From the NCBI GenBank assembly GCA_016708585.1, contig JADJFK010000014.1:53600-117599 (forward strand): a stretch of 64,000 bases of DNA. The letters run 5' to 3'. Below the pieces are notes generated by a model that saw only the letters and a list, made by a program, of their open reading frames with translations, was not told where the DNA came from and did no database searches. Both the position numbers and the translations under genes were made by a program. Positions within the stretch are counted from its first letter, which is position 1. Each line of letters begins with the position of its first letter. Source of the DNA: Sulfuritalea sp. GTDB lineage: Bacteria > Pseudomonadota > Gammaproteobacteria > Burkholderiales > Rhodocyclaceae. Below are positions 11,365 to 46,232 of this stretch, one piece after another.

Positions 11365-11388
11365 GGGGCGACTCTCCGTGGATCTCGG

Positions 11389-15955: not shown

Positions 15956-17023
15956 TCAGAACAGGAAAGCCTGTTTTTCCGACGCAGCCGAAGGCTGATT
16001 GTCGGCCCCGAAGAACCGCAGCTGACGCGGCCGGAACCAGACCCCCTGGCCGACCGCCAGTTGCAGCGCCTCGTGGCGCTCGCGCGACAGTTCGACTTCG
16101 ACGATTTCCCTTCCATGCAGTAACTCGATACGGACCACCGGTCCGATCGGATGCACATGCTGCACAGTCGCCTCTAGGCTGCCTTCGGCAATCGAGTGGG
16201 TGATGTCGATATCGTGCGGCCGGACGAAGGCGGTGGCCCGCTCCGGCTTCTCGCGGCACTCGACTTCGGCGTAACCTCCCTGCACCCGGCTATGGAAGAC
16301 GTTCACGTTGCCGAGGAACTGGTACACGAAGGGCGAGGCGGGGCTGGAATACACCTCGTCCGGCGAGCCGATCTGCTCGATCTTGCCGTGGTTCATGACC
16401 ACCACGCGATCGGCGACTTCCAGCGCTTCTTCCTGGTCGTGGGTGACGAACACCGACGAGATGTGCATGTCGTCGTGCAGGCGGCGCAACCAGCGGCGCA
16501 GTTCCTTGCGCACCTTGGTATCAAGCGCGCCGAAGGGCTCGTCGAGCAGCAGCACCTTGGGCTCGACGGCGAGGGCACGAGCCAGTGCAATCCGCTGCCG
16601 TTGGCCACCGGAGAGTTGCGACGGATAACGATCTGCCAGCCAGTCGAGTTGCACGAGGCCGAGCAGCTCCATGACCCGGCGCTTGATCTCGGCATCGGAC
16701 GGACGCTCCTTGCGCGGCTTGACGCGCAGGCCGAAGGCGACATTCTCGAATACCGTCATGTGGCGGAACAGCGCGTAATGCTGGAAGACGAAACCAACAT
16801 TACGCTCGCGGGCGTGCAGGTGGTTCGCTTCGGCGCCGGAGAAGAGGATCTCGCCCTGATCGGCTGTCTCCATGCCGGCAATGATGCGCAGCAAGGTCGT
16901 CTTGCCGCAGCCGGACGGGCCGAGCAGCGCGACAAGCTCTCCGGTCGGGATGTCGAGGTTGATGTTGTCGAGCGCGACGAAATTGCCGAAGCGCTTGGAG
17001 ATGTTGCGGATTTCGATGCTCAT
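15956..17023 (-). CDS. cysA: Sulfate/thiosulfate ABC transporter ATPase CysA
   Basis: Start [13 protein letters not shown] at 17023 (TAATG overlap with cysW). Walker [10 protein letters not shown], signature LSGGQRQR, Walker B LLLDEPF. Confidence 0.9.
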
Positions 17024-17895
17024 TAGGTTTTCTCGCCGGGGAGTTCCGCGTTCAGCATGTCGGTCTCTGCCTTCATGCGCCATTCGACGATGGTCTTGGC
17101 CACCAGCGTCACCAGTGCCAGCAGTGCCAGCACCGAGGCGGCGGCGAAGGCGCCGATCGCGTTGTATTCGTTGTAGAGGATCTCGACGTGCAGCGGCAGC
17201 GTGTTGGTCTCGCCGCGGATGTGGCCGGAAACCACCGACACCGCGCCGAACTCGCCCATCGCCCGGGCGTTCGACAGGATCACGCCGTAGAGCAGGCCCC
17301 ACTTGATGTTGGGCAGGGTGACGCGCCAGAACATCTGCCAGCCGGAGGCGCCGAGCGAGATCGCCGCCTCTTCCTCGTCCTTGCCCTGCGACTGCATCAG
17401 CGGGATCAGCTCGCGGGCGATGAAGGGGAAGGTGATGAACAGGGTGGCGAGGATCATGCCCGGCACGGCGAAGATGATCTTGACGTCCTTGGCCGCCAGC
17501 CACTCGCCGAAATAGCCCTGCGAGCCGAACATGAGGATGAAGATCAGGCCGGCGACCACCGGCGACACCGCGAAGGGCAGGTCGATCAGCGTGATCAGCA
17601 GGCTCTTGCCCTTGAACTCGAACTTGGCGATGGCCCAGGCCGCAGCGACGCCGAACAGGATGTTGAAGGGCAGCACGGCCAGCGCAATGACGATGGTCAG
17701 CCAGATCGCCGAACGGGTTTCCGATTCCTTCAGCGCCTCAAGATAGATCGGCAGGCCCTGCGCCAGCGCTTCGACGAAAACCGCGACCAGCGGCAACCCG
17801 AGGAAGAAGAACAGGAAGCCGAGGCCAACCGTCAGCAGCGTGTAACGCACCCAGGCCGGTTCCTGCGTGGCGCGTGTCAGTTTGTTGCTACTCAT
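17023..17895 (-). CDS. cysW: Sulfate ABC transporter permease CysW
   Basis: 290-aa multi-TM permease positioned between cysT and cysA. Confidence 0.9.
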
Positions 17896-18767
17896 GCCGC
17901 ACCCGCCTTGGTCTTGCCGGCAGCCACTTCCAGCGGCTCACTGTTTTTGTGCCGATTGGCTGCCCACCATTGCAGCGCATTGATGACCAGCAGCAGCACG
18001 AAGGAAATGGCCAGCATGACCACGGCCAGCGCCGTGGCGCCGAGCACGTCGTACTGCTCCAGCTTGGAGATGATCAGCAGCGGCACGATTTCGGAAATCA
18101 GCGGCAGGTTGCCGGCGATGAAGATGACCGAGCCGAATTCGCCGAGCGCCCGGGCAAAGGCCAGCGCGAAGCCGGTGAGCAAGGCCGGGCCGATGGCCGG
18201 GAAAATCGCTTTTACGAAGGTCTGCCAGCGCGAGGCGCCGAGCGAGGCGGCTGCCTCCTCGACTTCGGTTTCGATATCCTCGATCACCGGCTGCAAGGTG
18301 CGGACGACGAAGGGCAGGGTAATGAAGGTCAGGGCGACGATGATGCCGAGCGGCGTATAGGCCACCTTGACCCCCAGTGGCTCAAGGTACTGCCCCAACC
18401 AGCCGTTGCCGGCGTAAAGCGTGGCCAGCGTGATGCCGGCCACCGCTGTCGGCAGCGCGAATGGCAGATCGACCAGCGCATCGACGAAGCGCTTGCCGGG
18501 AAAAGAATAGCGAACGAGGATCCAGGCTACGATCAGCCCGAAGAAGGCATTGATCGACGCGGCCAGCAACGACGACACGAAGGTGACACGAAAGGCCGCC
18601 AGCGAGCGTTCGCCGAGCGCGATGTCGAGAATCTGGCCGAAACCGAGTTCGGACGCCTTGAGTATCATGCCGCCGAGGGGCAGCAGGATCAGTAACGAGA
18701 GATAGACCAGCGTATAGCCCAGCGCCAGACCGAAGCCAGGCAACACGCGTTGGGATTTTGCGGACAT
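17892..18767 (-). CDS. cysT: Sulfate ABC transporter permease CysT
   Basis: The start was chosen at MSAKSQRVLPGFGLALGYTL, a typical CysT N-terminus. The ORF extends to 18791. Confidence 0.85.
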   Translation of the reverse strand: MSAKSQRVLPGFGLALGYTLVYLSLLILLPLGGMILKASELGFGQILDIALGERSLAAFRVTFVSSLLAASINAFFGLIVAWILVRYSFPGKRFVDALVDLPFALPTAVAGITLATLYAGNGWLGQYLEPLGVKVAYTPLGIIVALTFITLPFVVRTLQPVIEDIETEVEEAAASLGASRWQTFVKAIFPAIGPALLTGFALAFARALGEFGSVIFIAGNLPLISEIVPLLIISKLEQYDVLGATALAVVMLAISFVLLLVINALQWWAANRHKNSEPLEVAAGKTKAGAA

Positions 18768-18862
18768 GAGTATTCTTGTTTTTTTGGCCAAATTCTCCGG
18801 TCGACCGCAGCAAAGCCTCAGGCCGGGCAGAACCCGGCCGGCTTTGGCGGGCGGGCGAACGC

Positions 18863-19861
18863 TTACTTGGCGACGTAAATCTGGTCGAAAGTGCCGCCAT
18901 CCTTGAAGTGGGTGGCAAATGCCTTGTTGGCACCGCCGAACACCTCATCGACGGTGAATGTCTTCACCGGCGGGAAGAACGCCGCATACTTCTTCAGCAG
19001 CTCGGCGTCACGCGGCCGCAGGTAGTTCTGCGCGGCGTTCTCCTGGCCTTCTTTGGACCACAGGTACTCCAGGTAAGCCGTGGCCTGCTTGCGCGTTCCC
19101 TTCTTGTCCACCACCTTCTCGACGACAGCGACCGGGAACTCGGTCTGCATGGTCAGGCTGGGATGAATCACCTCGAAATTGCCCTTGCCGAATTCCTTGG
19201 CGATCATTTCGGCTTCGGATTCAAAGGTGATCAACGCATCGCCCATGCCACGCTGCATGAAGGTCGTTGTCGCGTCACGGCCACCGGCGGCGAACAGCGG
19301 AGCGTTCTTCAACAGCTTGCCGACGAATTCCTGCGCCGTTTTGTCGCTGCCGCCCGGTTGCTTGAGCGCCCAAGCCCAGGCCGACAGATAGGTATTGCGG
19401 CCGTTGCCGGTGTTCTTCGGGTGCGGCATGATGACCTGAACACCCGGCGCTGCCAGGTCGGCCCAATCCTTCAGGGCCTTGGGATTGCCCTTGCGCACGA
19501 TGAAGACCATCGCCGATGTGTAGGGCGAAGCGTTGTTCGGGAACTTCTTTGCCCAGTCCTTGGCGACCAGACCTTTCTCGGCCAAGAACTCGATATCGTT
19601 GGCCTGATTCATCGTCACCACGTCGGCCTCCAGCCCGTCGGCCACGGCCCGCACCTGCTTGGTCGAGCCGCCGTGCGACTGCTTCAACTCCACGCTTTCG
19701 CCAGCGTTGGCTTTCCAGTGCTTCTGGAACATCGGGTTGTAGTCCTTGTAGACATCGCGCGCGACGTCGTAGGACGCGTTGAGCAGCGTGGCATCTGCCA
19801 GGGCGGCCCCGGCAACCAGGCTGAGCAGAACGGTAGCTATCGATTTACGGAAATGGGTCAT
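18863..19861 (-). CDS. sbp: Periplasmic sulfate-binding protein
   Basis: 332 aa with a signal peptide and Sbp/CysP-like sequence (LLNASYDVARDVYKDYNPMFQKHW). Confidence 0.9.
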   Translation of the reverse strand: MTHFRKSIATVLLSLVAGAALADATLLNASYDVARDVYKDYNPMFQKHWKANAGESVELKQSHGGSTKQVRAVADGLEADVVTMNQANDIEFLAEKGLVAKDWAKKFPNNASPYTSAMVFIVRKGNPKALKDWADLAAPGVQVIMPHPKNTGNGRNTYLSAWAWALKQPGGSDKTAQEFVGKLLKNAPLFAAGGRDATTTFMQRGMGDALITFESEAEMIAKEFGKGNFEVIHPSLTMQTEFPVAVVEKVVDKKGTRKQATAYLEYLWSKEGQENAAQNYLRPRDAELLKKYAAFFPPVKTFTVDEVFGGANKAFATHFKDGGTFDQIYVAK

Positions 19862-20131: not shown

Positions 20132-20560
20132 TCAGTCGAAGCGAACAGCAATCTGCTTCCCATCAGATTTTGTACAAACCCCGGCGGGGTCTTGGCCCGG
20201 CCCCCAAGTCAGTAGGCATCGAATCGTCTCCCCATTGGGGGCACGTAGTACCGGCGATGCCGAACTCCTTAGGTGATCTCTATCCACGCCGCTGGCAATT
20301 CGGTCGTAATGTTTGCCAGGGCCATACAACTTACGCATTTCTGCTAGGTCTTGATGACGCCTAATCTCAAATCCTCGCCCCTCATATCGTGCTCCTTCGA
20401 TTTCCAGAACCATGACCGGCACCTGTGTGCCTTCGTGGCTAAAGGAGCCAGTGACGGGTGAGGACTCGTTCACCGATTCCAGCTGATGGGTATGCCCGGC
20501 ACAACCGGAAAGTGTCACGCCCAAGATACAAGTGGGGAGTATTTTTGCAACCGCAGACAT
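20132..20560 (-). CDS. Hypothetical lipoprotein (last gene of RND operon 1)
   Basis: Lipobox LSGC after MSAVAKILPTCILGVT. It starts 12 nt after the upstream stop. Confidence 0.55.
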   Translation of the reverse strand: MSAVAKILPTCILGVTLSGCAGHTHQLESVNESSPVTGSFSHEGTQVPVMVLEIEGARYEGRGFEIRRHQDLAEMRKLYGPGKHYDRIASGVDRDHLRSSASPVLRAPNGETIRCLLTWGPGQDPAGVCTKSDGKQIAVRFD

Positions 20561-20572
20561 GCGACCCTCCTT

Positions 20573-20956
20573 CTATTTCAACACGAAGCGAACCGTTGCT
20601 GTGGCTTTGCCCGGCACGGATACCAACGCGACAATCTTGCTGTTGGCAAATTTGAAACTGCCTGTGGCTTCCAGTTGCTGGCCTACCGGTTTCAACTCGA
20701 CTTCCTGCTTATCAGCACCGACGAGGATGGTCAGCTTGGCGTTGGACTTCGAGACATCCACCGGCTTGCCATGATCGCGCAAATGCAACTGAATCAAATC
20801 CGGCTTGACCACCAGTTCGTAATCCACATCCTTGACCTCGCTGACGACGCCGCCGTGAAGCGGCTTGCGTTCGTGGCCATGGTCGTGACCACCGGCGGCG
20901 AAGGCAAGGCCGGACATGGAGAAGGCAAAAGCGGCGAGAAAATAAATCGGTTTCAT
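20573..20956 (-). CDS. Periplasmic accessory protein Y1 (His-rich N-terminus, beta-rich; family unassigned)
   Basis: Start MKPIYFLAAFAFSMSGLAFA. The mature N-terminus is AGGHDHGHERKPLHGG. Paralog of 39543..40025. Confidence 0.6.
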   Translation of the reverse strand: MKPIYFLAAFAFSMSGLAFAAGGHDHGHERKPLHGGVVSEVKDVDYELVVKPDLIQLHLRDHGKPVDVSKSNAKLTILVGADKQEVELKPVGQQLEATGSFKFANSKIVALVSVPGKATATVRFVLK

Positions 20957-20981
20957 GGGATTTCCTTTCGTAGAGCAATAA

Positions 20982-23900
20982 TTAGAGCGCACCGGCATCG
21001 CTATCGTTCATCAGGCGTTCCGCATCCTTGCGGCCGAACAGCCAGAACATGGCGGGTGTCAGGAAGGTGTCGAGCAGGGTTGAGCTGATCAGGCCCGAAA
21101 AGATGACCACTGCGACCGGATGCAGGATTTCCGTACCCGGCCGCTCGGCCTCGAACAACAACGGTGCCAGCGCGAAGGCCGTCACCAGCGCCGTCATCAA
21201 GACGGGTGCAAGACGTTCCAGAGAGCCGCGCAGGATCATCTTGTGGTCGAAGTTCTCGCCTTCGATGCGCATCAGGTTGATGTAATGGCTGACCTTGAGG
21301 ATGCCGTTGCGTACCGAGATGCCAGCCAACGTGATGAAGCCGACCAGCGCGGCGACCGATAGCGGCTGCCCGGAAAGCCACAAACCGAGCACTGCGCCAA
21401 CCAGTGCCAGCGGAATGTTGGCCATGATCAGCGCCGACAGCACGACCGACTTGTAGCGACTGAAGAGCACCACAAACATCAGCACCAGCGAGACGATGGA
21501 GAGCAGACCAACCAGCCGCGAAGCCTCTTCTTGCGCCTGGAACTGTCCGCCCAGGGTGATGAAGTAGCCTTCAGGCAGTTTGCTGTCGCCGACCACCTTG
21601 CGGATGTCCTCGATAATCTCGGACAATGCCCGCCCTTGGGCGTTGGCCGAAATCACGATGCGCCGCTTGCCATCGTCGCGGCTGACCTGATTCGGCCCGT
21701 CGCCATCCTCGATGGTGGCGATTTTTGACAGGGGAATCGGGCCGCCGGGCGTTTCCAGCAATATCCGCCCCAGCCCTTGCAACGAGCGGGACGATTCGGG
21801 CAAACGCACGACCAGCGCAAAGCGCCGGCCGCCCTCGACCACTTGCGTTACTTTTTCACCTTCGACCAGGCTTTGCAGCGTCGCCAGAATCTGTGGCGTC
21901 GGCACGCCGTACTGTGCGGCCGTCGCGTAGTTGACACTGACCTTGATCTGCGGGGCCAGTACCTGCTTCTCAATTTCCAGATCGACAACGCCGGGAATAC
22001 CGGCCAACCTGCCGCGCAGCACATCGGCCTGACCACGTAGCGTGTCCAGGTCGTCGCCAAAAATCTTGATAGCGATCTGCGAGCGCACGCCGGACAGCAT
22101 ATGATCGATGCGGTGCGAGATGGGCTGGCCGATAGCAACCGCTGCCGGCAGGTTGATCAGGCGGGCGCGAATGTCGGCCGAAATTTCGCCCATCGAGCGC
22201 GTCATTTCGGACGCCGGCTTCAGGCCGACATCCAGTTCACTGACGTGAACGCCTTCCGCATGCTCGTCGAGTTCCGCCCGGCCGCTGCGCCGCCCGACGT
22301 GCACAACTTCCGGCACTGCCTTGACTAGCACCTCGGCCTGTTGCGCCAGGGCCGACGACTCGGCCAGCGTGACGCCGGGATTAAGGCGCATGCCAATCAG
22401 TAGCGTTCCCTCATTGAAGGGCGGCAGGAAGGTTTTTGGGAAGAAGGGCACCGCGACCGCTGCCACCAGAACGGCAACAGCACCGGCCGCCAACGCCGAT
22501 TTAGGCCGGTTGAGCACCGCCTGCAAACTGCGGCCATAGCTGGCTTTTAGCCAGGCCAGCAGTTTCGTATCGCCATGATCGAGCGACTTCATGCTTGGCA
22601 GCAGGTAGAAGGAGAGCACCGGCGTCACCGTCACCGACACCACCAGCGAGGCCAGCGTCGAAACGATGAAAGCGATGCCGAGCGGCACGAACAGCCGACC
22701 TTCCATACCGGGCAGTGCGAACAGCGGCAGGAAAACCAGCACGATAATAATCGTTGCGTAGAGGATGGCCGAACGCACTTCCATCGTCGCATGGGCCACT
22801 AGTTCAATCGGGTGCATTCGATGATCGTGGTGCTTGGCCCGGTCTTCCTTCAGGCGCCGCAGCACGTTCTCGACGCCGACCACTGCGTCATCGACCAGGC
22901 CGCCGATGGCGATGGCCAGACCACCCAGGGTCATGGTGTTGATCGACAGGCCGTAATAGTCGAAGACCAGCGCCGTAATGAAAATTGACACCGGTATCGC
23001 GGTCAGCGCGATCACCGTCGGGCGCAAGGTGCCCAGGAAGAAGAACAGGATGACGGCGACGAAGACCGACGCCCCGATCAGCTTGCCTTGCAGCGTGCTG
23101 ATCGACGACTCGATGAAACTGGCCTGGCGGAAGGTTACCTTGGGCGCCTCCATGCCGGCCGGCAGCGATTTTTTCAGATCCTCCACGGCGGCCTCAATGC
23201 TCCGGGTCAGATGGATGGTGTCCGCCGTTGGCTGCTTCTGGATGCCGAGAATGACCGCCGGCTTGCCCTCGAAACCGGCATCGCCCCGCTTGATGGCCGG
23301 CGCGAAGGTCACGTCGGCGATTTGCCGCAATAAAACGGGTTGACCGTGGCGGGCCGTCAGCGCCAGATTTTTCAGGTCGTCCAGACGCGACGTGCGGCCG
23401 AGATGGCGAATCAGGTATTCGCGCCCGTTGAGTTCGAGGAAACCGCCGGAGGTGTTGGCCGAGTATCCCTTGAGCGCCCCGGTCAGCTGTTCGTGCGAAA
23501 TGCCCAGTTCCGCCATGCGCGTCGTGTTCGGCTGCACCTGGAACTGCCGTACTTCGCCGCCGATGGGAATGACCTGCGCCACGCCGGCGATGGCCATCAA
23601 ACGCGGACGCAGCACCCAGTCGGCGTATTCGCGCACCTGCATCGGCGAAATCTTCGCTGTGTCGATGGGAATGGCGATCTGCATGATTTCGCCCATGATC
23701 GAACTGATCGGCCCCATGCGCGGCGTGACGCCCGTCGGCAGCCCTTCCTCCATCGAGGAAAGACGTTCCGACACCATCTGTCGCGCCCGGAAAATCTCTG
23801 TTCTCCAGTTAAAGGTCACATAAATGAACGAGAGGCCGGCACTGGAAACCGACCGTACGCTTTCCACCCCTGGCAGACCGTTCATGGTCGTTTCCAGCGG

Positions 23901-24101
23901 GAAGGTGATCAGTTGTTCAACTTCCTCGGCGGCCATGCCGCCGGATTCGGTCATGATGGTGACCGTCGGCTTGTTGAGGTCTGGAAACACATCGACCGGC
24001 GTGCGCGAGAGCGTGAATGCCCCATACGCCATCAGCACCAGGCTGGCGATGATGACCAGCAGGCGGTTGGCAAGGCTGTTGTCGAGAAGCCACTTGAACA
24101 T
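20982..24101 (-). CDS. Heavy-metal efflux RND permease (CusA/CzcA superfamily), paralog 1
   Basis: 1039 aa. N-terminus PVDVFPDLNKPTVTIMTESGGMAAEEVEQLITFPLE. TM4 motif GGLAIAIGGLVDDAVVGVENVLRRL. Confidence 0.95.
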   Translation of the reverse strand: MFKWLLDNSLANRLLVIIASLVLMAYGAFTLSRTPVDVFPDLNKPTVTIMTESGGMAAEEVEQLITFPLETTMNGLPGVESVRSVSSAGLSFIYVTFNWRTEIFRARQMVSERLSSMEEGLPTGVTPRMGPISSIMGEIMQIAIPIDTAKISPMQVREYADWVLRPRLMAIAGVAQVIPIGGEVRQFQVQPNTTRMAELGISHEQLTGALKGYSANTSGGFLELNGREYLIRHLGRTSRLDDLKNLALTARHGQPVLLRQIADVTFAPAIKRGDAGFEGKPAVILGIQKQPTADTIHLTRSIEAAVEDLKKSLPAGMEAPKVTFRQASFIESSISTLQGKLIGASVFVAVILFFFLGTLRPTVIALTAIPVSIFITALVFDYYGLSINTMTLGGLAIAIGGLVDDAVVGVENVLRRLKEDRAKHHDHRMHPIELVAHATMEVRSAILYATIIIVLVFLPLFALPGMEGRLFVPLGIAFIVSTLASLVVSVTVTPVLSFYLLPSMKSLDHGDTKLLAWLKASYGRSLQAVLNRPKSALAAGAVAVLVAAVAVPFFPKTFLPPFNEGTLLIGMRLNPGVTLAESSALAQQAEVLVKAVPEVVHVGRRSGRAELDEHAEGVHVSELDVGLKPASEMTRSMGEISADIRARLINLPAAVAIGQPISHRIDHMLSGVRSQIAIKIFGDDLDTLRGQADVLRGRLAGIPGVVDLEIEKQVLAPQIKVSVNYATAAQYGVPTPQILATLQSLVEGEKVTQVVEGGRRFALVVRLPESSRSLQGLGRILLETPGGPIPLSKIATIEDGDGPNQVSRDDGKRRIVISANAQGRALSEIIEDIRKVVGDSKLPEGYFITLGGQFQAQEEASRLVGLLSIVSLVLMFVVLFSRYKSVVLSALIMANIPLALVGAVLGLWLSGQPLSVAALVGFITLAGISVRNGILKVSHYINLMRIEGENFDHKMILRGSLERLAPVLMTALVTAFALAPLLFEAERPGTEILHPVAVVIFSGLISSTLLDTFLTPAMFWLFGRKDAERLMNDSDAGAL

Positions 24102-24113
24102 GATTGGCTCCGC

Positions 24114-25136
24114 TCAGCGTATCTGGTTGATCAGAGTGGCCGCGCGGACGGCAACCCGATCCCCGGCTTTCAGTCCGCTGGTCACCGCCACGTGGGTGCC
24201 GTCCAGCGGCTCGGCGGTTACCGTGCGCGGCTCAAAGCGTTCCGGCGCCGTCTTGACCCAGACGATGCTCTGGTTGGCCGGGTTCTTCATCAGCGCCGCC
24301 GCCGGCACACGGATTCCTGGCACCGTGCTGCGCGTCTGCACGAAGACCCGCACCGGCTGGCCGACGGCCAATCCCGCCAAAGCGCTACCTTCACCCCGGA
24401 AGGTCAGCGGCAGGGCCTGTTCGCGCAGGCTGCGGGCAACGCCGACCAGGCGTAGCGGCAACTTCTGCTCGCCAACGGCAACAAAGGCCCCGGCCACATC
24501 GCTGGCGACGGCCATATCGAAAGCCAGCGCCTCGATCAGCAGGCGTTCCGGATTGACGATCTCGAACAGGATTTCGCGGGCTTCGAGCACCTGACCAGAG
24601 ACGACGTTGGCCGAGGCAATAACGCCACTGACCGGCGCCACCAGTTGCTCGTTGGCCACGGCAGCTTCGGCTTCCTCGATGACCTTGCGCGGCACGGTGT
24701 CGGACAGTTCTCGCAGGCGGCGCAGGCGACTTTCAGCCAGGGAGCGGCTGTTGCCGCCGACTTCCGGCGTCACGTAAGCCAGCACCTCGCCTTTCTTGAC
24801 CTGCTGGCCGGGCAATGGCAGACCGCGTGGTCCCGGCGTGACACGACCGGCAACGATGGCCTGCACTTTGCCGCCGGCATTCGGGTCCATGACCACCTTG
24901 CCGGCCAGTTCATGGGTACGGGGCAGTTCGCCTGGCTCAACCAGCAGGGTGCGAACGCCGATCTGGCGTTGCGCCGGTTTGGGCAGGAAGACGCTGCCGT
25001 CCGGCTGGCGTTTGGGGCCGCTGCCGCTGGCAGCGGGCGGGGCGTCACCGTGGTCATGGCCGTCGCCGGCCACTGCCGGCATTGCAGAAAACGACAAGGA
25101 AAGACAAAAAGCGCTCAATAACAGCCGGGGCCTCAT
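24114..25136 (-). CDS. RND periplasmic adaptor (MFP/HlyD family), paralog 1
   Basis: The start at 25136 overlaps the X1 stop (ATGA). Signal peptide, then GDGHDHGDAPP. The ORF-track version extends upstream. Confidence 0.85.
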   Translation of the reverse strand: MRPRLLLSAFCLSLSFSAMPAVAGDGHDHGDAPPAASGSGPKRQPDGSVFLPKPAQRQIGVRTLLVEPGELPRTHELAGKVVMDPNAGGKVQAIVAGRVTPGPRGLPLPGQQVKKGEVLAYVTPEVGGNSRSLAESRLRRLRELSDTVPRKVIEEAEAAVANEQLVAPVSGVIASANVVSGQVLEAREILFEIVNPERLLIEALAFDMAVASDVAGAFVAVGEQKLPLRLVGVARSLREQALPLTFRGEGSALAGLAVGQPVRVFVQTRSTVPGIRVPAAALMKNPANQSIVWVKTAPERFEPRTVTAEPLDGTHVAVTSGLKAGDRVAVRAATLINQIR

Positions 25137-25702
25137 GCGGCACCTCCGAAATGCGGGTTGCGGGAAGCGCGCAGGCGGCGCAATAGGGCGGCGAGGAGTA
25201 GCAGCGCCCCGCCGGCGGCACCACCCCACAGGGCGTATTCCTTCCAGCCATGGGTGTGGGCGCTCGTTTCTCCATGCGCCTCTTCGTGGATGTCGAGTTC
25301 ACCAGCCAGCAAGTCGGTTTCCTCGCCGGCGATGACGGTAGCCACGACCGACACGACCCCCGGCTTGAGTTCCTGCGCCAGCGTTGCCTCGAACTCGCCC
25401 TCGGCATGCGCTTCGACGGGGACTTTGACGCCGCCCAGTTCGAGTTCGAGCCTGGCGTTTTTGACTGGGCTGCCGTCGGCATAGCGGTCGAGATAGAGCG
25501 TCAGTTGCTTGCCATTGACGACGCCGACCAGTTCAAAGGTTTCGGACGTTGCCGCAAAAAGCGGCGAGGTGGGACCAGCCGATGATGCCGGCGCCTCGCC
25601 ATGGTCGCCACCGGCCCAGGCCAGTGGAGTCGCCAGGACGATCCAGGCGGCCCATCCCAAAGCGACCAGCGTGTTTGTTGTTCTCATGTTCGGATTCCTC
25701 AT
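25133..25702 (-). CDS. Bitopic accessory protein X1 (signal peptide, His motif, beta-rich domain, C-terminal TM anchor; family unassigned)
   Basis: GGDHGE after the signal peptide. C-terminal HTHGWKEYALWGGAAGGALLLLAALLRRLR. The start overlaps the OMF stop, and an alternative ATG at 25687 has a GAGGAA SD. Paralog of 44316..44834. Confidence 0.6.
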   Translation of the reverse strand: MRNPNMRTTNTLVALGWAAWIVLATPLAWAGGDHGEAPASSAGPTSPLFAATSETFELVGVVNGKQLTLYLDRYADGSPVKNARLELELGGVKVPVEAHAEGEFEATLAQELKPGVVSVVATVIAGEETDLLAGELDIHEEAHGETSAHTHGWKEYALWGGAAGGALLLLAALLRRLRASRNPHFGGAA

Positions 25703-26997
25703 TTTTGTTCGGGGAGCAGGCCCAGGGCCTGACGCAGGGCGGAGATGGCGGCGGCCAGGTCAATCCGGGCGCGAGCGTTTTGCCGTTCGGCTTCGACGGA
25801 TTCGAGTTCGATACGCAGGCGGGTCGGCAGGTCACTTTCGCCCAGGCGGAAGGACTTGTCGAAAAAGCCCCGCGACTCACGCGCCAGTTGGGTGCGCTTC
25901 TCGGCGGCCGCCAGTTGCGTGCGACTCGATTCGACGCGCACGCGCGCCGCTTCCAGATCAGCCGCCAGGCGCTCGCGCTCGAGGCGAAGTTGCCCCTCGG
26001 TTTCGAGGGCTTCAGCGCGGGCAAGGCCGAGTTTGGCGCGATTGCGGCTCTCCGAACCAAAAGGGATGCGCACGCCTAGTGTGACGGTCTGCTGATAGTC
26101 GTCGCCGAAAGCGCCTCGCTCGCGGGTAGTCGCCAGCAGCAGTTCGGGATTGCTCCTCGTCTGCACGCTGGCCAGATCGGCACTACGGCGAGCAACCTCG
26201 GCCCGGTCGAACAGTTCGACGACCGCTGGGTGGGTCGAATCCAGGGCGGTGAAGTCGGCAGGCACCGCCGGCGGGGTTTCCGGGCCGTCGGCTGCTGCCA
26301 CATCCGGCAGCTTGCCGATCAAGGCGCGCAGCTGCTGGGTGGCTGCGGCCAGCAGGCTGGCGCTTTCCGCCAGGGTCACCTCGGCGCTTGCCGCCACGCC
26401 ATCGGCCTGATGCTGGTCCGATCGTGCCAGGTCGCCGGCCTTGACCCGGCGGCGGACATCTTCTGCCAGTTTTTGCGCGCTGACCAAGCGCTCGCGGGCC
26501 AGTGACTGTTCGCCGCGTGCCCGCTGCCAGTTCCACCAGGCATCACGCACGGCGGCGGCTGTGCGCAATTGGGCAGCCGTCACCCGGCTGTCCACGGCTT
26601 TGGATTCGGCGTCTGCCAAGGCACCCTGACGGGAGCGCTCGCCCGGCAGCCACAGGGGCAAGACCACACCGGCCGCGTATTCGCGGCTGCCTTGATTCTT
26701 GCTCAGTTGGTCGGTCTTGCCGTACAAATCCAGCGAAGGCGCTTGGGCCGTCCAACTGCCGGCAACCTGCCGACGCGCCTCGGCAGCATCGCGCCGCAGA
26801 TCAAGGGATTGCGCTTCCGGTTGTCGCTCCCAAGCGGCCGCAAAGGCTTGCGACAGGGTAATCACGGCACCAGCGGGGGCTGACGTCGATTGCGCCCACA
26901 GGTCCCCGGTCGCTATTGCAGCGAGCGAGCACAGCCCGGCAACGACTAGGCGGGCCGGTAAAAAGGTAGTTCGTGAAATTGATTTGCTTCGAGACAT
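25699..26997 (-). CDS. Outer-membrane factor (TolC family), paralog 1
   Basis: 432 aa with a signal peptide and the typical OMF repeat structure. Confidence 0.9.
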   Translation of the reverse strand: MSRSKSISRTTFLPARLVVAGLCSLAAIATGDLWAQSTSAPAGAVITLSQAFAAAWERQPEAQSLDLRRDAAEARRQVAGSWTAQAPSLDLYGKTDQLSKNQGSREYAAGVVLPLWLPGERSRQGALADAESKAVDSRVTAAQLRTAAAVRDAWWNWQRARGEQSLARERLVSAQKLAEDVRRRVKAGDLARSDQHQADGVAASAEVTLAESASLLAAATQQLRALIGKLPDVAAADGPETPPAVPADFTALDSTHPAVVELFDRAEVARRSADLASVQTRSNPELLLATTRERGAFGDDYQQTVTLGVRIPFGSESRNRAKLGLARAEALETEGQLRLERERLAADLEAARVRVESSRTQLAAAEKRTQLARESRGFFDKSFRLGESDLPTRLRIELESVEAERQNARARIDLAAAISALRQALGLLPEQK

Positions 26998-27131
26998 CCG
27001 ATTCTCCAGTGATTAAAAGACACACGGGGAATCGGCGAGGTGCGACCGGGAAGTGTCGCAATGCGTCAGGGCGGATCAGTCCACCGCAGCCACAAGGGAG
27101 AAGCGCAGAAAAGTGCTATCCACCCCGCCGA

Positions 27132-27488
27132 TTAGGCGAGGACGGACCAGTTGGGGCGTTCGGGGTGCGCGAGAGGCGGCGCGGTCAGATTTCCCGGTGA
27201 CCAGGGAATCGCAATGGACGCGCTGCTTGAAGCCGGCAAGGAGGCCATGCTGAAGATCGCCGCCGCACAACTCGCATGACAGGCGACGCAATCGCTGTCG
27301 ATGCCACCACCCAGTGCTTTGGCATCCGGCGTGCCCTCCTGATCGGCAGCGGCCTGATGCTGGTGGTCATGATGGCCAAAGTGCTGCGCAGCAGCCCCGG
27401 ACTCGTGCTGGCAATAGCCGGCCACCGCCGCCCAGGAGAACTGGAACGGCAGAAAAACGAGAAGAAGGATTGAGAGCCAGCGGCGCAT
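27132..27488 (-). CDS. CzcI-like small Cys/His periplasmic protein
   Basis: MRRWLSILLLVFLPFQFSWAAVAGYCQHE...HFGHHDHQH...DCVACHASC resembles small proteins encoded upstream of czc-type operons. An alternative start is at 27515. Confidence 0.5.
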   Translation of the reverse strand: MRRWLSILLLVFLPFQFSWAAVAGYCQHESGAAAQHFGHHDHQHQAAADQEGTPDAKALGGGIDSDCVACHASCAAAIFSMASLPASSSASIAIPWSPGNLTAPPLAHPERPNWSVLA

Positions 27489-27646: not shown

Positions 27647-28084
27647 CTATTCGACCGAGTAGAGGCGCGACGACTCACCCTCTTTGGGCAAGGTATATAC
27701 CTTCAGCGTTCCCACGATGTGCGGCCCCATGCCGGGGGCATTGGTCGGCATGCCCGGAATGGTCAGGCCCCGAACCGACGGCTGCTCGGTCAGCATTTTC
27801 TTGACAGCGGAGGCGGGCACATGGCCTTCCACGGTGTAGCCGCCAACTTTCGCGGTATGGCAACTAGCCAAATGCGGGGGCACCCCAAACCGTTGCCGTT
27901 CCACGTCCATGGCACGGGTATTGACCTGTTTCACCTGAAAGCCGGACTCTTGCATGTGCTTGACCCACTCGGTGCAGCAGTCGCAATCAGGATTCTTGTA
28001 GACGGTCACTTCGGGCAGTTGTGCCGCAAGGGCACCCTGTAGTGCGGTGGTCACTAACAGGCAGGCAATGAGCTTTTTCAACAT
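27647..28084 (-). CDS. copG: DUF411 / CopG-family periplasmic copper protein (copy 2)
   Basis: ATG 28084 with AGGA 9 nt upstream. Motifs DCDCCTEW, SCHTAKV and IPGMPTNAPGM. Confidence 0.85.
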   Translation of the reverse strand: MLKKLIACLLVTTALQGALAAQLPEVTVYKNPDCDCCTEWVKHMQESGFQVKQVNTRAMDVERQRFGVPPHLASCHTAKVGGYTVEGHVPASAVKKMLTEQPSVRGLTIPGMPTNAPGMGPHIVGTLKVYTLPKEGESSRLYSVE

Positions 28085-28154
28085 GAAAATAAATCCTTTC
28101 AATAAAATGGGAGATGGGCTAAACGCTAGTAATGGAAAAATGTGATACCCGGCG

Positions 28155-28646
28155 TCAATCGAACTTCATGTCAACGGTTTTCTCAATCGGCGGATAACAG
28201 ATGCCGAGTGTCTCATTGCACCCCTGATAAGACGCATAAAGGGTGACGGCTTTAGACTTGGGAGCGCGTTCCACAACGATTTCCGCGACGACCGGCGACT
28301 TATAGACTTCAATCAGCCCAAAATAGGGGTCGTTCTTCATCTCGCCGGAAGGTAGCCTCACCTCCTTAATCATGACGCCGCTGGCGTTCTTCAAGGCGAA
28401 GCGGACCTTGTTCTTGTAGAGGTAGTGCTTCTTGGCAGGAATGATTTCAGCCACCACCGTATCGCTACCCTTCAGGGATGCCTTGAGCCGAAACGCCTGA
28501 TCAGGAGGCAAGGGTTCCTCGGCTGCCGAAGTGCAATGGACCAGGCCCATGAGCATCAAGGCAGACAACGTGCGACGGTCAAATAGGGAGAAGGATCGTT
28601 GAGCCAATTTGTGTTCCTCGTTTTGGTTTATAGCCAGGATTTGCAT
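28155..28646 (-). CDS. Stand-alone DsbD N-terminal (alpha) domain-like periplasmic protein
   Basis: HYLYKNKVRF ... YQGCNETLGICYPP resembles the nDsbD/ScsB N-domain. Start choice is uncertain because the ORF runs to 28736. Confidence 0.6.
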   Translation of the reverse strand: MQILAINQNEEHKLAQRSFSLFDRRTLSALMLMGLVHCTSAAEEPLPPDQAFRLKASLKGSDTVVAEIIPAKKHYLYKNKVRFALKNASGVMIKEVRLPSGEMKNDPYFGLIEVYKSPVVAEIVVERAPKSKAVTLYASYQGCNETLGICYPPIEKTVDMKFD

Positions 28647-28666
28647 CGAGATTTCCTGCGCACTTG

Positions 28667-29149
28667 CTAAGTGGGCGCCTTGCTTTGAGCTGACGACAGC
28701 AAGGTTCCCAAAAGAAGAATCAAGGCGCTCAGACAAAGCGCCGTATCGGCGAGATTGAAGGCTGGCCAGTGCCAGCCGCCGGCATGGAAGTCCAGATAAT
28801 CCACGACCGCTCCCCGGCCCAAGCGATCTACCAGGTTGCCGACGGCACCGCCGAGGAGCAGGCTATACCCCCACCCTTCCCACCGGTTCGCCACGCCTTT
28901 CAGCAACATGATGGTCAGCCCCACCGAGACGGCCAAGGCAAGGGCAATCAAGACATAGCGTTGCCAACCGCCGGCATTCGCGAGAAAACTGAAGGCTGCG
29001 CCGCTATTCAGGATGTGGACGAGATTGAAAAACGGTAACACCGTTTCGCCTGCGCCCAAGGGGAAGGTACCCGCGATCCAATGCTTGGCCCCTTGGTCCG
29101 CCAAGGCCACACCGATGGCCAACCCCAGCCAGCGGTACCGGTCCATCAT
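28667..29149 (-). CDS. lspA: Lipoprotein signal peptidase II (extra copy)
   Basis: Motifs LADQGAKHW, NSGAAFSF, GGAVGNLVDR and FNLAD. The start was taken at the MM pair (29149/29146). Confidence 0.85.
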   Translation of the reverse strand: MMDRYRWLGLAIGVALADQGAKHWIAGTFPLGAGETVLPFFNLVHILNSGAAFSFLANAGGWQRYVLIALALAVSVGLTIMLLKGVANRWEGWGYSLLLGGAVGNLVDRLGRGAVVDYLDFHAGGWHWPAFNLADTALCLSALILLLGTLLSSAQSKAPT

Positions 29150-29390
29150 GGGCTTGCGCGGGATTATTTGCGGAGCACTCGCCCTATCGCCAGAACCCTG
29201 TTGCGCGGTCTCTGCTCTCGGGAGCGCCGCGAGGGCGGTCATGGTCACTATGAGACGAGTCCTGTCCATGTCATCTCTCCTTGGTTGAATCAGCTATCAA
29301 TGCGAGGCATGGCCTCGCGTCGCTACAGGAGCACGCCCACGACGAGCGCGCCTCTGCACTTCTAAAGGTGGCATCGGCGTCGAGACGGTG

Positions 29391-29729
29391 TCACCAGCAA
29401 TTGCCCCACGTCGGCTGCTTGACGGTCAGCCCGGCCTGCGCCGCGTAGTACGCGGCGAGCTTCCCCATATCCTCATCGGACAACCCTTCCACCTGAGGCT
29501 TCATCACCGGATCGATTCGTCTGCCGTCGCGATATGCCCGCAGCGCACCCACGAGATAAGCCTCTCGTTGACCTGCAATCCGGGGAAACTGGTCGGTGGC
29601 GCTGTTGCCGTCGGTCCCATGGCATGCGGCGCAGACCTGCTGCGCCTTGCCCGGTGGCCTGACCTCGGCCGCGAGGACCGCTCCTGCGGCCAGTAAAGCG
29701 GTCAGGCCGCTTATCCAGGCATATCTCAT
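29391..29729 (-). CDS. Monohaem cytochrome c (c4-domain-like)
   Basis: Signal peptide, CAACH, then PRIAGQREAYLVGALRAYRDGRR...M. The start overlaps the upstream stop (ATGA). Confidence 0.75.
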   Translation of the reverse strand: MRYAWISGLTALLAAGAVLAAEVRPPGKAQQVCAACHGTDGNSATDQFPRIAGQREAYLVGALRAYRDGRRIDPVMKPQVEGLSDEDMGKLAAYYAAQAGLTVKQPTWGNCW

Positions 29730-30070
29730 TTGTTGTCCTTTCTGGCATAGAAGGCGGCGATCTCGGCAATTTCCCTATCGTCGAGCATCGAGGCCATGCG
29801 ATTCATCAAGGGATGGCGGCGTTCGCCGCTGCGATAAGCCCTCAGGGATTTTTCGAGGTAAGCGGCGTGTTGTCCGCCCAACTTCGGCGCCGTCTCGCCG
29901 GGACCCATGCGAATTCCCATACCCATACCGCCGCGCATAGCCATGTCGTGGCAGCCGTGGCACATCTCGACCTTGTTCCAGCCCCCGTCGGCGCGGCCCA
30001 TGCCCCAGTTCTGTGCGTGTGCCGATGTGCCGGTCATGAGGAACAAGGCCATCATTGCCAGATATTTCAT
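29726..30070 (-). CDS. Monohaem cytochrome c (c4-domain-like) with Met-rich insert
   Basis: The start at 30070 overlaps the ATPase stop (ATGA). CHGCH is followed by DMAMRGGMGMGIRMGPGE, then PKLGGQHAAYLEKSLRAYRSGERR. Confidence 0.7.
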   Translation of the reverse strand: MKYLAMMALFLMTGTSAHAQNWGMGRADGGWNKVEMCHGCHDMAMRGGMGMGIRMGPGETAPKLGGQHAAYLEKSLRAYRSGERRHPLMNRMASMLDDREIAEIAAFYARKDNK

Positions 30071-32313
30071 GCAGCTGTCTCCTTCCCTGGACCGGTAACT
30101 CGCAGCAAACGCAAGCCGTTCGCCACCACGAGCAGGCTTGCACCCATATCGGCAAACACCGCCATCCACATGGTCGCATTACCGAAAACGGCGAGTCCGA
30201 GAAAGATCGCCTTGATGCCCAGGGCCAGCCCGATGTTTTGCCAGAGCACCGCATGGGTGCGCCGGGACAGGCGAATGGTCTCGGGAATGCGCCGCAGGTC
30301 GTCGTTCATAATCACCACATCGGCCGCTTCCATCGCCGTGTCCGTGCCGGCAGCGCCCATGGCCACGCCGATGTCGGCACGTGCCAGGGCCGGTGCGTCG
30401 TTGATGCCGTCGCCGGTCATCGCGGTCTGACCATAGCGACGTTGCAAATCTTCGATGGCCGCCAGTTTGTCCTCTGGAAGAAGATTGCCCCGGACGTCGT
30501 CGATGCCGGCTTCCCTGGCGATGCTCGCGGCCGTAGCCACATTGTCGCCGGTCAGCATGGCCGAGGCGACACCGAGACGGTGCAGATCGGCCACCGCCTC
30601 ACGCGAACTTTCCTTGATCGTGTCCGCCACCGCAAAAATCGCCAGCACCTGCTGTGCCGACGCCAGCATGGTGACCGTCCGGCCTTGCGTCTCATGCAAC
30701 TGAAGGCGAGCCTCGATCTCGGCACTACACAGGTTGCGCTCCTCAACCAGGCGATGATTGCCGAGGACGATGAGTTGGCCATCCGTGCGAGCTTCAACAC
30801 CTCGTCCGGCGAGGGCGACAAAATCGGTCAAGCCGTTCTCCGGAAGCTTGAGACCGGTCGCAATCGCTTTTGAGACCGGATGGTCCGAGTGCCCGGCCAG
30901 GCTGGCCGCCCAGGCCAGCACCTGGGATTCGGGGACCGCTGAGGGAAGGATCTCCATGGCGACCAGACGGGGTTTGCCTTCGGTAATGGTGCCGGTCTTG
31001 TCGAGGGCAATGACCCGCAGTTTGCGGGCCTCCTCAAGATAGACACCGCCCTTGATCAGGATGCCGCGTCGGGCCGCCGCCGCTAGGCCGCTGACCACCG
31101 TCACCGGCGTGGCAATCACCAGCGCGCAGGGGCAGGCGATGACCAGCAGCACCAAGGCTTTGTAGAGCGCCTGCGTCCAGGACCAACCGAGAAGCAAGGG
31201 TGTCAGAACCGCCACGGCAACCGCAATGGCAAACACGGTCGGGGTGTAGATTGCGGCAAAGCGATCCACGAAGCGCTGGGTTGGCGCTTGCGTCCCCTGC
31301 GCCTGTTCGACCGCGTGGATGATGCGGGCCAGCGTGGTATTGTCGGCAGCGGCGGTCACACGAAACTCCAGAATGCCGGTTTCGTTGATCGTGCCGGCGA
31401 ACACCGGGTCGCCTGCCGCTTTGTCAATCGGGATGCTTTCGCCGGTGACCGGCGCCTGATTGACTGCACTGCTTCCTGCCGTCACCTGACCATCGAGCGG
31501 TATCCGAGCGCCTGGTTTGACCCGCACACTGGCTTCCAGCTTTACCTCAGCGGCTGGTACTTCCAGCCACGTCCCATCATCCTGCCGCACTTCCGCCGTC
31601 TCCGGCGTCAGGTCGAGCAGGCCCTTGATGGCGTTACGCGCCCGATCCACGGACCGGGCCTCAATCAGTTCGGCAATGGCATACAAGGCCATGACCATCG
31701 CCGCCTCGGGCCACTGTCCAATGAGGAAGGCACCAGTCACCGCCACACCCATCAGCGCGTTCATGTTCAACTGCCCGCGCCGCAATGCCGCCAGTCCCTT
31801 GCTATAGGTGGAAATGCCGGACAACCAAATAGCGACGACGGCCAACGCCATACCGAAGCCCTTGAAAGGCAGTGTGTCGGGCGCGAAATAATCCACCGCT
31901 TCCGCACCGATGGCCAGTACCAGCGCCAGAACACTTCGCCACAGCTCACTGACGCCAGCGTTTTTTGTCGCCGCCTGTTCTGCCGACACCGCCTTGGGGC
32001 TGAACCCCGCTTTGCGGATGGCGGCCAAGGCTGCATCGAGGGACTCCGTCGTCGCATCTATCGACACGGTGCGGGCCGACAGCTGGAACCGCAGGGAACG
32101 GATGCCGTCGATACCGGCCACCGCACGACGGATATCATTCTCCTCGTTCGGGCAGTCCATGGTTGGAATCAAGAAGACGGGCACGCCATCGCTTTGAACG
32201 AGACCAGAGGCTGCCGGGATTTCTGCGGCTGTGGTCACTGCTGCGGAACAGCCGCCCGCACATCCGCAATGGGCAGTTTCCGGAAGGGGCTTCGGATTGG
32301 GATCAAGACTCAT
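30067..32313 (-). CDS. cadA: Zn/Cd/Pb-type (P1B-2) heavy-metal P-type ATPase
   Basis: N-terminal HMA-like [25 protein letters not shown], and C-terminal ADMGASLLVVANGLRLL (DxG type). It lies next to cadR. Confidence 0.9.
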   Translation of the reverse strand: MSLDPNPKPLPETAHCGCAGGCSAAVTTAAEIPAASGLVQSDGVPVFLIPTMDCPNEENDIRRAVAGIDGIRSLRFQLSARTVSIDATTESLDAALAAIRKAGFSPKAVSAEQAATKNAGVSELWRSVLALVLAIGAEAVDYFAPDTLPFKGFGMALAVVAIWLSGISTYSKGLAALRRGQLNMNALMGVAVTGAFLIGQWPEAAMVMALYAIAELIEARSVDRARNAIKGLLDLTPETAEVRQDDGTWLEVPAAEVKLEASVRVKPGARIPLDGQVTAGSSAVNQAPVTGESIPIDKAAGDPVFAGTINETGILEFRVTAAADNTTLARIIHAVEQAQGTQAPTQRFVDRFAAIYTPTVFAIAVAVAVLTPLLLGWSWTQALYKALVLLVIACPCALVIATPVTVVSGLAAAARRGILIKGGVYLEEARKLRVIALDKTGTITEGKPRLVAMEILPSAVPESQVLAWAASLAGHSDHPVSKAIATGLKLPENGLTDFVALAGRGVEARTDGQLIVLGNHRLVEERNLCSAEIEARLQLHETQGRTVTMLASAQQVLAIFAVADTIKESSREAVADLHRLGVASAMLTGDNVATAASIAREAGIDDVRGNLLPEDKLAAIEDLQRRYGQTAMTGDGINDAPALARADIGVAMGAAGTDTAMEAADVVIMNDDLRRIPETIRLSRRTHAVLWQNIGLALGIKAIFLGLAVFGNATMWMAVFADMGASLLVVANGLRLLRVTGPGKETAA

Positions 32314-32342
32314 GGCGTTCTCCTTGTTTCCCGCATTAGAAA

Positions 32343-32376
32343 CCCTTGAGTGACTACAGAGTCAAGGGATTACAAT
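32343..32376. promoter_or_regulatory. MerR-family (CadR/PbrR-type) operator within overlapping divergent 19-bp-spacer promoters
   Basis: Dyad CCCTTGA-N12-TCAAGGG. The plus strand reads TTGAGT-19 nt-TACAAT (ynfA-cadR). The minus strand reads TTGACT-19 nt-TCTAAT (ATPase). Confidence 0.6.
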
Positions 32377-32402
32377 GAAAAAAACTATGCGGAGCCAAAG
32401 CG

Positions 32403-32741: not shown

Positions 32742-32757
32742 ACGTCAGGAGGCGAAG

Positions 32758-40025: not shown

Positions 40026-40061
40026 GGGTATCTCCTTTTTTGCGTTGAGCAGTACTTCGGG

Positions 40062-43166: not shown

Positions 43167-43167
43167 G

Positions 43168-46090: not shown

Positions 46091-46232
46091 GACTGCCGGG
46101 AAGAAAGAAGCAGGTATAGGCGACGGCCCGCGACTTCCTGACGATTTCGAGTATGAGTTTCCACAGCGTTCGCTCCTGTTCGACGATGAGTGAATTCTGC
46201 GCAACTCCACCTAACGGCATGCTGACCTTCAG

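Follow-up and report, generated by a model that had tools for sequence, protein, structure and literature searches.

The stretch of DNA analyzed here (64,000 nucleotides of contig JADJFK010000014.1, assembly GCA_016708585.1, assigned to Sulfuritalea sp.; hereafter the window) carries at 20132-27488 a minus-strand operon for a tripartite heavy-metal efflux (HME) system of the resistance-nodulation-division (RND) type, in which two small exported proteins, here called X and Y, accompany the outer membrane factor (OMF), the membrane fusion protein (MFP, or adaptor) and the RND pump. We give about an even chance to the reading that this is a nie-type HME-RND efflux system with a histidine-based metal path, in which X and Y are metallochaperones that feed the MFP and the pump. 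Such a chaperone relay is a reasonable but unproven model, for which we infer the binding of metal, the direction of its transfer and its substrate; predicted fold, motifs, fusions and synteny lend it new support. The strongest evidence here that X may act beside the adaptor comes from natural fusions of X to the MFP. An open reading frame (ORF) check of the window recovered all seven closely packed minus-strand ORFs that a preliminary description had listed, and the motifs quoted there (GGDHGE, HTHGW with a transmembrane [TM] helix and RRLRASR, GGHDHGHERKPLHGG and AIGGLVDDAVVGVEN) are present. The numeral 1 marks proteins of this operon (operon 1):

27132..27488, minus strand: czcI-like gene, 118 amino acids (aa), with a signal peptide, CVACH, and HFGHHDHQH at 27357-27383; exceeds the curated NCBIfam NF045614 cutoff (104.9 versus 100)
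25699..26997, minus strand: OMF gene (nieC-like), 432 aa, OEP/TolC type (Pfam OEP, E 7.5e-26)
25133..25702, minus strand, start probably 25687: X1 (the published 'cep'), with no Pfam or NCBIfam match
25595-25612, minus strand: His motif GGDHGE of X1, after the signal peptide
residues about 46-140 of X1, minus strand: beta-sandwich predicted in the AlphaFold 2 (AF2) model
25244-25258, minus strand: HTHGW of X1
25181-25237, minus strand: TM helix of X1
25160-25180, minus strand: RRLRASR of X1
24114..25136, minus strand: MFP gene (nieB-like), 340 aa, HlyD/CzcB type (HlyD_3 and TIGR00999 matches)
25044-25067, minus strand: mature N terminus GDGHDHGD of the MFP, behind a cleavable signal peptide
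20982..24101, minus strand: HME-RND pump gene (NieA type), 1039 aa; exceeds the cutoff of the CusA/CzcA family TIGR00914 (801.1 bits versus 701.45)
22866-22910, minus strand: TM helix 4 (TM4) motif AIGGLVDDAVVGVEN of RND1
22245-22262, minus strand: HAEGVH of RND1
22101-22115, minus strand: HRIDH of RND1
20573..20956, minus strand: Y1, 127 aa, with no Pfam or NCBIfam match
20849-20893, minus strand: His-rich GGHDHGHERKPLHGG of Y1, after the signal peptide and before a soluble beta-sandwich
20810-20821 and 20765-20779, minus strand: YELV and RDHGK of Y1
20132..20560, minus strand: lipoprotein gene, 142 aa, lipobox LSGC at 20501-20512, with no Pfam or NCBIfam match

An HxH tail sits directly behind the signal peptide in all of X, Y, the MFP and the CzcI-like protein. 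In X and the MFP this tail takes the form G[HE]DH[GSD], found in 65 of 70 distinct orthologs of each protein, and the dozen residues that follow it are also similar between the two; the X hidden Markov model (HMM) matches residues 10-39 of MFP1 (E 9e-6). HxH is present in 50/52 proteins of the Y type and in 61/62 of the CzcI-like type. Three alphaproteobacteria, Methylobacterium aquaticum, Peteryoungia desertarenae and Defluviicoccus vanus, have an adaptor gene for a protein of 558-604 aa, an X-MFP fusion that runs from a signal peptide and His motif through the X beta-domain, a TM helix, an Arg cluster and a second hydrophobic segment into a normal MFP; the annotation of M. oryzae points to the same fusion. 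The resulting topology (periplasmic X, TM, RRR, TM, periplasmic MFP) is self-consistent, and the Defluviicoccus fusion has a second His motif ahead of its MFP part. Together, the fusions and the identical His motif on X and the MFP fit a hand-over from X to the adaptor.

The fusions also bear on a different, rather unlikely account, in which X is mainly an AcrZ-like structural tether or assembly factor that holds the MFP or stabilizes the pump at the inner membrane and does not serve to deliver metal. In the fusions, the MFP receives its membrane anchor from X, and the MFP otherwise has an AxA-type signal peptide leading directly into the His motif, with no lipid or TM anchor of its own; moreover, the TM helix, W153 and the RR cluster are among the best-conserved features of X. 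A pure anchor, however, needs no conserved periplasmic domain of 95 residues whose His tail is a copy of that on the MFP. Also against this account, both X subfamilies conserve the invariant N-terminal His as well as E57, D72, D130 and D137 of the beta-domain, and the fold of X is best matched by metal-binding proteins.

The pump itself belongs to a described class. Klonowska et al. (2020; PMC7060636) gave a bioinformatic description of nieIC-cep-nieBA of Cupriavidus neocaledonicus STM 6070, where 'cep', for 'conserved exported protein', is the gene that breaks the CBA order; from the HAEGVH and HRLDH motifs and a distinct TM helix IV of NieA, they proposed a new HME class and, again from motifs, nickel. 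Their table lists NieA with AIGX3DDAX3VEN, HAEGVH(A/S)SE and HRLDH under the label 'HME5?/class 6' (PMC7060636). RND1 satisfies this consensus with TM4 AIGGLVDDAVVGVEN, HAEGVHVSE and HRIDH, the last being a conservative L/I change, as does RND2, the pump of a second operon in the window, with TM4 AIGELVDDAVVGVEN, HAEGVH and HRLDH. HAEGVH is found in 56/57 distinct RND orthologs and HR(I/L)DH in 55/57. The order nieI-nieC-cep-nieB-nieA is matched here as well, and the architecture, which the preliminary description had set apart from canonical czcCBA and cusCFBA operons, was already known as the nieIC-cep-nieBA type (PMC7060636). Since the pump is of the NieA type and the order I-C-X-B-A is shared, X is the published 'cep'. 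A plasmid of Cupriavidus pauculus (locus L087) has the order I, TolC, X (with a 4-nucleotide [nt] overlap), HlyD, RND, Y and chrBA; its RND N terminus is nearly identical to that published for NieA, its small genes match the X and Y HMMs, and chrBA lies downstream as in STM 6070. Y, which the 2020 paper did not report, is a sixth gene of the nie operon and follows nieA in Cupriavidus too. A full-text literature search for these motifs yielded no further paper.

In an alignment of RND1 and RND2 to Escherichia coli CusA, histidines replace the CusA methionine site in this pump. M672, D617 and N668 all correspond to His; M623 corresponds to V/Y, with His at the preceding residue; and M573, E939 and K984 correspond to G/N, R and V, respectively. 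The TM Met pairs are absent from RND1 and RND2, whereas a CusA-like pump of the window (RND3) retains all three Met. The nearest solved structures, CusA (509 bits) and ZneA (471 bits), are about equally distant. Assignment to the CusA/HME4 type was rejected, as the three-Met site is missing and TM4 reads DDA...VEN rather than A(V/I)GX3DAAX3IEN, and so was the CzcA/HME1-2 type, TM4 being AIG...DDA...VEN and not DFGX3DGAX3VEN. The earlier view that TM4 is not of the CzcA type therefore stands, but the CusA-type resemblance gives way to the NieA/HME5-like AIGX3DDAX3VEN.

The positions of X and Y are strongly conserved. A scan of one genome per species with an X-derived pattern gave at least 285 confirmed loci, of which the best 80 were analyzed; loci are counted only where the contig extends far enough, in a sample gathered via X that includes redundant metagenome-assembled genomes (MAGs). 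An OMF gene lies directly 5' of X and an MFP gene directly 3' of it in 72/72 loci, Y directly follows the RND gene in 59/60, a czcI-like gene lies upstream of the OMF gene in 66/67, and a lipoprotein homolog follows Y in only 11/56. This synteny is far beyond chance, and the co-occurrence with homologous pumps that had been suggested as a check on X and Y is borne out. The conserved unit is thus made up of six genes (czcI-like, OMF, X, MFP, RND and Y), and the lipoprotein gene, earlier counted as the seventh member of the operon, is a variable passenger outside this core. Hosts are chiefly Rhodocyclales, Burkholderiales and Thiobacillus-like Betaproteobacteria, across which the RND proteins are 84-98%, X 45-90% and Y 53-87% identical, a pattern consistent with a mobile operon. 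In a check on plasmids that started from the pump, 30 of 33 records with an RND at least 53% identical also yielded an X match, and Y was detected by tblastn in beta- and gammaproteobacterial plasmid records. In three alphaproteobacterial operons (Methylobacterium, Peteryoungia and Defluviicoccus), the RND gene is followed by a small gene that belongs to the Y family, with HMM E values of 4e-12 to 2.5e-20 for the beta-domain only.

Both proteins are named 'hypothetical protein' in annotated records, and this absence of annotation is the sole support for regarding X and Y as hitchhiking ORFs or miscalled frames with no role in the pump. Such a reading is exceedingly improbable: each protein has more than 1,300 homolog clusters and a confidently predicted fold, the genes show start/stop coupling with their neighbors, an X-MFP fusion and RNA contig coverage, and their positions are fixed across Beta-, Gamma- and Alphaproteobacteria. 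Conservation and synteny effectively refute it.

As the preliminary description had stated, X and Y fall in no named family: neither X1 nor Y1 has a match in Pfam (E up to 0.1) or NCBIfam, and searches of PDB sequences with the X and Y profiles found nothing. The homolog clusters, more than 1,300 for each protein, are all unnamed and without a Pfam domain, those of X being labeled 'hypothetical' throughout; a profile search of 1.84 billion representatives placed 1,304 clusters at 50% identity in the Y family, 540 of them at E ≤1e-10, and among 100 diverse members there was no consistent Pfam match and no hit to the CopC profile. The sequence families that had been suggested for a profile search did not match X1 or Y1, namely, CopC (PF04234), CusF (PF11604) and FixH/YtkA; when compared with the HMMs of X and Y, CusF of E. 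coli and a FixH-family protein of Defluviicoccus gave E values of 0.3 or worse (above 0.9 for CusF). Nor could these proteins be linked to two further publications, a PmcY preprint (PA3962/YiiP), which is unrelated, and a Mesorhizobium Zn/Cd transcriptome paper, for which a link to this family could not be made.

The AF2 model of X comprises a signal peptide, a disordered His segment, a beta-sandwich with a predicted local distance difference test (pLDDT) score above 90 and a C-terminal TM helix at 153-180, and the Y model a signal peptide, a His-rich segment and a beta-sandwich, with pLDDT above 90 from residue 31, in agreement with the tethered X and soluble Y first described. Both beta-domains are predicted with high confidence to be immunoglobulin (Ig)-like beta-sandwiches, and the models may resemble periplasmic copper proteins of the CopC/CrdA type. 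In Foldseek searches against the PDB, the best match of X was Helicobacter pylori CrdA (9ll2, E 6e-5, TM-score 0.62), followed by FetP/P19, DUF4426 and CopC. For Y, CrdA (9ll4, E 2e-3, TM-score 0.6) ranked third to fourth amid CBM56 and FN3-like domains. CopC itself matched at E of about 1e-2, and generic Ig/FN3 folds score alike for Y. Known CopC-type Cu sites, built on an N-terminal His1 plus another His or on a Met-rich loop, are not matched in X and Y, where the Met-rich loop is absent, and the first His falls at about position 4, not 1, of the mature chain at the most likely signal-peptide cleavage site.

X and Y are probably distant homologs, judging from profile comparison of their beta-domains. 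Pairwise BLASTP of X1 and Y1 gave no significant match, a full-length hhalign result (94.9%) was discarded because the signal peptide and His motif inflate it, and trimmed profiles from shallow alignments gave an insignificant probability of 9%. With deeper alignments of the beta-domains only, hhalign returned E 2.2e-5, a probability of 76% and a score of 31.5, compared with 11.4 for a reversed profile and 16.9 for the best of 40 column shuffles. The aligned core reads (F/Y)ELV ... L(Y/H)L ... PV, with the Glu of (F/Y)ELV invariant in both families, so that the shared core motif proposed earlier is weak yet real at the profile level. The best 150 Y-profile matches include no X-like protein, and this search is therefore neutral on X-Y homology.

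Y is also found away from nie operons. Y-family genes lie directly 3' of other types of CusA/CzcA-family pumps in Thauera sp. K11, Roseomonas and Variovorax WDL1, and one on an Enterobacter cloacae IncF plasmid follows a cation diffusion facilitator (CDF) gene downstream of the pump. On plasmid p1 of Novosphingobium sp. ES2-1 (L090, 5189-7096), a Y-family member (HMM E 1e-19) stands between DUF4198 and HupE/UreJ genes, with no RND pump within the 12-kb stretch examined, which suggests that the Y fold may also serve metal uptake systems. HupE/UreJ proteins are Ni/Co permeases, and the position of Y beside one is therefore a hint at Ni/Co rather than proof. We tentatively entertain, as a possibility short of even, a broader form of the chaperone model in which X and Y are two related unnamed families that make up a histidine-based periplasmic metallochaperone system: a diffusible, general Y would serve many HME-RND pumps and perhaps HupE/UreJ-type uptake, and a membrane-docked X would load the identical His tail of the adaptor.

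On another view, which we also regard as unlikely, Y, perhaps together with X, would not feed the pump but buffer periplasmic metal or act as a signaling accessory, like CzcE, CopK or SilE, sequestering metal or reporting its periplasmic load to CzcI or two-component regulators. In its favor, Y-family genes occur beyond nie pumps, after other CusA/CzcA operons and in one case after a CDF gene, as well as in the pumpless Novosphingobium cluster; the length of the His-rich tail varies, as in buffer proteins; and heavy-metal two-component systems lie beside operon 2 as well as beside the copy in Thauera. Against it, the place of Y, last and directly after the RND gene, is fixed and recurs with other pump classes, and a single small domain with few potential ligands implies a low buffering capacity.

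Under the chaperone relay model, X would be a CopC/CrdA-like beta-sandwich that a single C-terminal TM helix anchors in the inner membrane, and Y a soluble paralog of the same fold. Within the periplasm, both would bind a divalent cation of borderline character (Ni2+/Co2+, Zn2+ or Cu2+), Y as a diffusible collector and X docked beside the MFP and pump. The cation would then move by ligand exchange between similar His sites and reach the MFP tail and the HAEGVH/HRxDH cluster of histidines that lines the periplasmic cleft of the pump, and the pump would expel it via the OMF. As to the substrate, Ni/Co may be favored by the His motifs, by what Klonowska et al. proposed and by the link of Y to HupE/UreJ. 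Frequent copper-gene neighbors, for example, the Cu-ATPase beside operon 2 and a multicopper oxidase in Peteryoungia, may instead indicate copper, and the HME5 relatives include a Synechocystis copper pump (PMC7060636). A CadR/PbrR regulator and a Cd/Zn-type ATPase near operon 1 may speak for Zn/Cd.

The operon is represented in RNA data. At least eight wastewater metatranscriptomes contain at least 70% of its sequence words, and in four of them one contig of 6.0-6.4 kb spans the lipoprotein gene, Y, RND, MFP, X and the 3' portion of the OMF gene. Assembly depth was about 5-50 times greater for the czcI gene and the 5' region of the OMF gene, and highest for the czcI contig, which fits a single promoter upstream of czcI and polarity along the operon; the RNA contigs also continue unbroken from the 5' part of the OMF gene via czcI into the 27647-30070 region. 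In all four metatranscriptomes, the contigs break inside the OMF gene at 26076-26079, where depth jumps about 5-fold and the loose ends are mutually reverse complementary (CAGCCTGTCGGACTT / AAGTCCGACAGGCTG). This break could be a hairpin assembler artifact, a strain variant or an RNA processing site.

Several points weigh against the relay. The fold match transfers no binding site because X and Y are without the Met-rich copper loop of CrdA; many generic Ig/FN3 domains score similarly in Foldseek, especially for Y. The homology of X and Y depends on a modest profile score. In X1 the motif is shortened to a single His (GGDHGE versus the consensus GDGHDHGE), and X2, the counterpart of X1 in operon 2, is without several acidic and His residues conserved in X1-type proteins. 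The synteny sample was collected through X and includes redundant MAGs. The RNA contigs may include DNA, and expression is poorly gauged by their depth.

Periplasmic substrate acquisition is much less clear for divalent-metal RND pumps than for the Cu(I) pump CusCFBA with its CusF, and if the broader form of the chaperone model is true, divalent-cation HME pumps would gain a CusF counterpart not yet described for them. The pump class occurs widely, on plasmids and among Betaproteobacteria of wastewater and soil, and its two obligate small partners are nameless in databases; annotation alone would give context and a name to two large 'hypothetical protein' families. A concrete, testable model of the hand-over comes from the His tails that are shared and from the natural X-adaptor fusions. 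The 2020 paper had already noted the operon type and 'cep'; this analysis adds the Y family and its relationship to X, the predicted CopC/CrdA-like folds, the His tails in common, the fusions of X to the MFP and the substitution of His for the CusA Met site.

Of the two ATGA overlaps reported earlier for operon 1, the one at 25133-25136, where the stop codon of X meets the start codon of the MFP gene, is confirmed and is preceded by a GGAGG Shine-Dalgarno sequence. The other, at 25699-25702, is present in the sequence, but the second ATG of X1 (25687) has a GAGGA Shine-Dalgarno sequence and is where most homologs begin; X1 therefore probably starts there and has 184 aa, which leaves an 11-nt spacer after the OMF stop and no overlap. 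The Y1 start at 20956 is preceded by AAGGAA, and the lipoprotein gene starts 12 nt past the Y1 stop. Over 20 kb, the window matches plasmid pAph01 (NC_013193.1) of "Candidatus Accumulibacter phosphatis" at 99.4% identity. In the region of the MFP signal peptide (25038-25095), about ten bases differ from NC_013193.1 and from the RNA contigs of four runs, the window reading CLSLSFSAMPAVAG where these read CLSFLLSPMPALAG, in surroundings that are 99.4% identical.

A search of the seven proteins against the window by tblastn revealed a diverged paralogous set, operon 2, at 39543-46135 on the minus strand in the order OMF2-X2-MFP2-RND2-Y2, with identities to operon 1 of 33% (OMF), 35% (X), 41% (MFP), 62% (RND) and 28% (Y):

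44831-46135, minus strand: OMF2
44316-44834, minus strand: X2, GTG start, GTGA overlap with OMF2
43168-44316, minus strand: MFP2, one-base overlap with X2
40062-43166, minus strand: RND2, with HAEGVH, HRLDH and TM4 AIGELVDDAVVGVEN
39543-40025, minus strand: Y2, with a C-terminal DGHADHKH tail

The tandem arrangement of operons 1 and 2 recurs in loci L005-L007 and L012. Operon 2 is flanked by a Cu-type P1B ATPase (passing TIGR01511) on one side and by a heavy-metal two-component system on the other. Outside the window, the 167.6-kb pAph01 encodes a third X2-like protein (P0413, CAP2UW1_4706; 181 aa, 77% identical to X2), and because of this record pAph01 probably carries a third nie-type operon. 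Several X2 homologs (P0399, P0467, P0498 and P0500) bear the NCBI label 'LPXTG cell wall anchor domain-containing protein', probably a misannotation of the C-terminal TM helix and basic tail; we reject it because the hosts are Gram negative and because the segment runs on into the MFP in the fusions.

A further efflux operon of the window, at 8230-14285, is a genuine CusCBA:

8230-11364: RND pump (RND3), keeping CusA M573/M623/M672
11389-13017: MFP, 542 aa
13014-14285: OMF

Next to it, a small CxxC protein at 14728-15168 resembles the one at 27647-28102 (NCDCC versus DCDCC), neither matching NCBIfam, and a sulfate/thiosulfate ABC (ATP-binding cassette) importer (binding protein, two permeases and ATPase) lies between the cus and nie operons at 15956-19861 of this metal-resistance plasmid. 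Upstream of czcI on the same strand are the CxxC protein at 27647-28102, a protein resembling the DsbD N terminus (28155-28646), what is probably a signal peptidase II (28667-29269) and a pair of small cytochromes c, in a region that reaches 30070. A Cd/Zn/Pb-type P1B ATPase (passing TIGR01512) and a divergent CadR/PbrR-family regulator (passing TIGR02047) occupy 30067-33234. Between the two metal islands, at 33530-36463, three successive tyrosine-recombinase-like ORFs (339, 324 and 318 aa) look like a recombinase trio element.

Among known systems, ZneCAB and CzcCBA are likewise tripartite HME-RND systems for divalent cations, and CzcI is common to czc; their TM4 signature DFGX3DGAX3VEN is absent here, the proximal-site residues here are His rather than Asp/Glu, and their operons as described have neither X nor Y. 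Like the nie operons, CusCFBA is an HME-RND operon in which the gene of a small periplasmic protein stands between those of the OMF and the MFP. There, CusF delivers metal to its adaptor, CusB, at the N-terminal tail, with the same type of ligand in donor and acceptor, and this like-ligand transfer is a parallel to the His tails that X and the MFP have in common. The small, soluble CusF forms a beta-barrel with a Met/His/Trp Cu(I) site, whereas X is predicted to be a membrane-anchored Ig-like sandwich with His and acidic residues and shows no sequence relation to CusF (E above 0.9); Cus has no trailing Y, and the nie pump no CusA Met cluster. CrdA, the CopC-family copper protein of the H. pylori CrdAB-CzcBA system (PDB 9LL2/9LL4), is devoid of His and Cys and uses a Met-rich loop to bind copper. 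It is the best or near-best structural match of the X and Y models (TM-score about 0.6) and a periplasmic beta-sandwich metal protein whose gene likewise accompanies that of an HME-RND pump, but it has no TM anchor, whereas X and Y carry His tails and no Met-rich loop and are only 11-17% identical to it. The nieIC-cep-nieBA operon of STM 6070 has the same order of CzcI-like protein, OMF, exported protein, MFP and RND and the same RND signatures; there, 'cep' was assigned no fold or function, and the gene after nieA, our Y, was not reported. Compared with the Cupriavidus-type and operon-2-type versions, the copies described here are 59-62% identical in the RND pump and about 35% in X.

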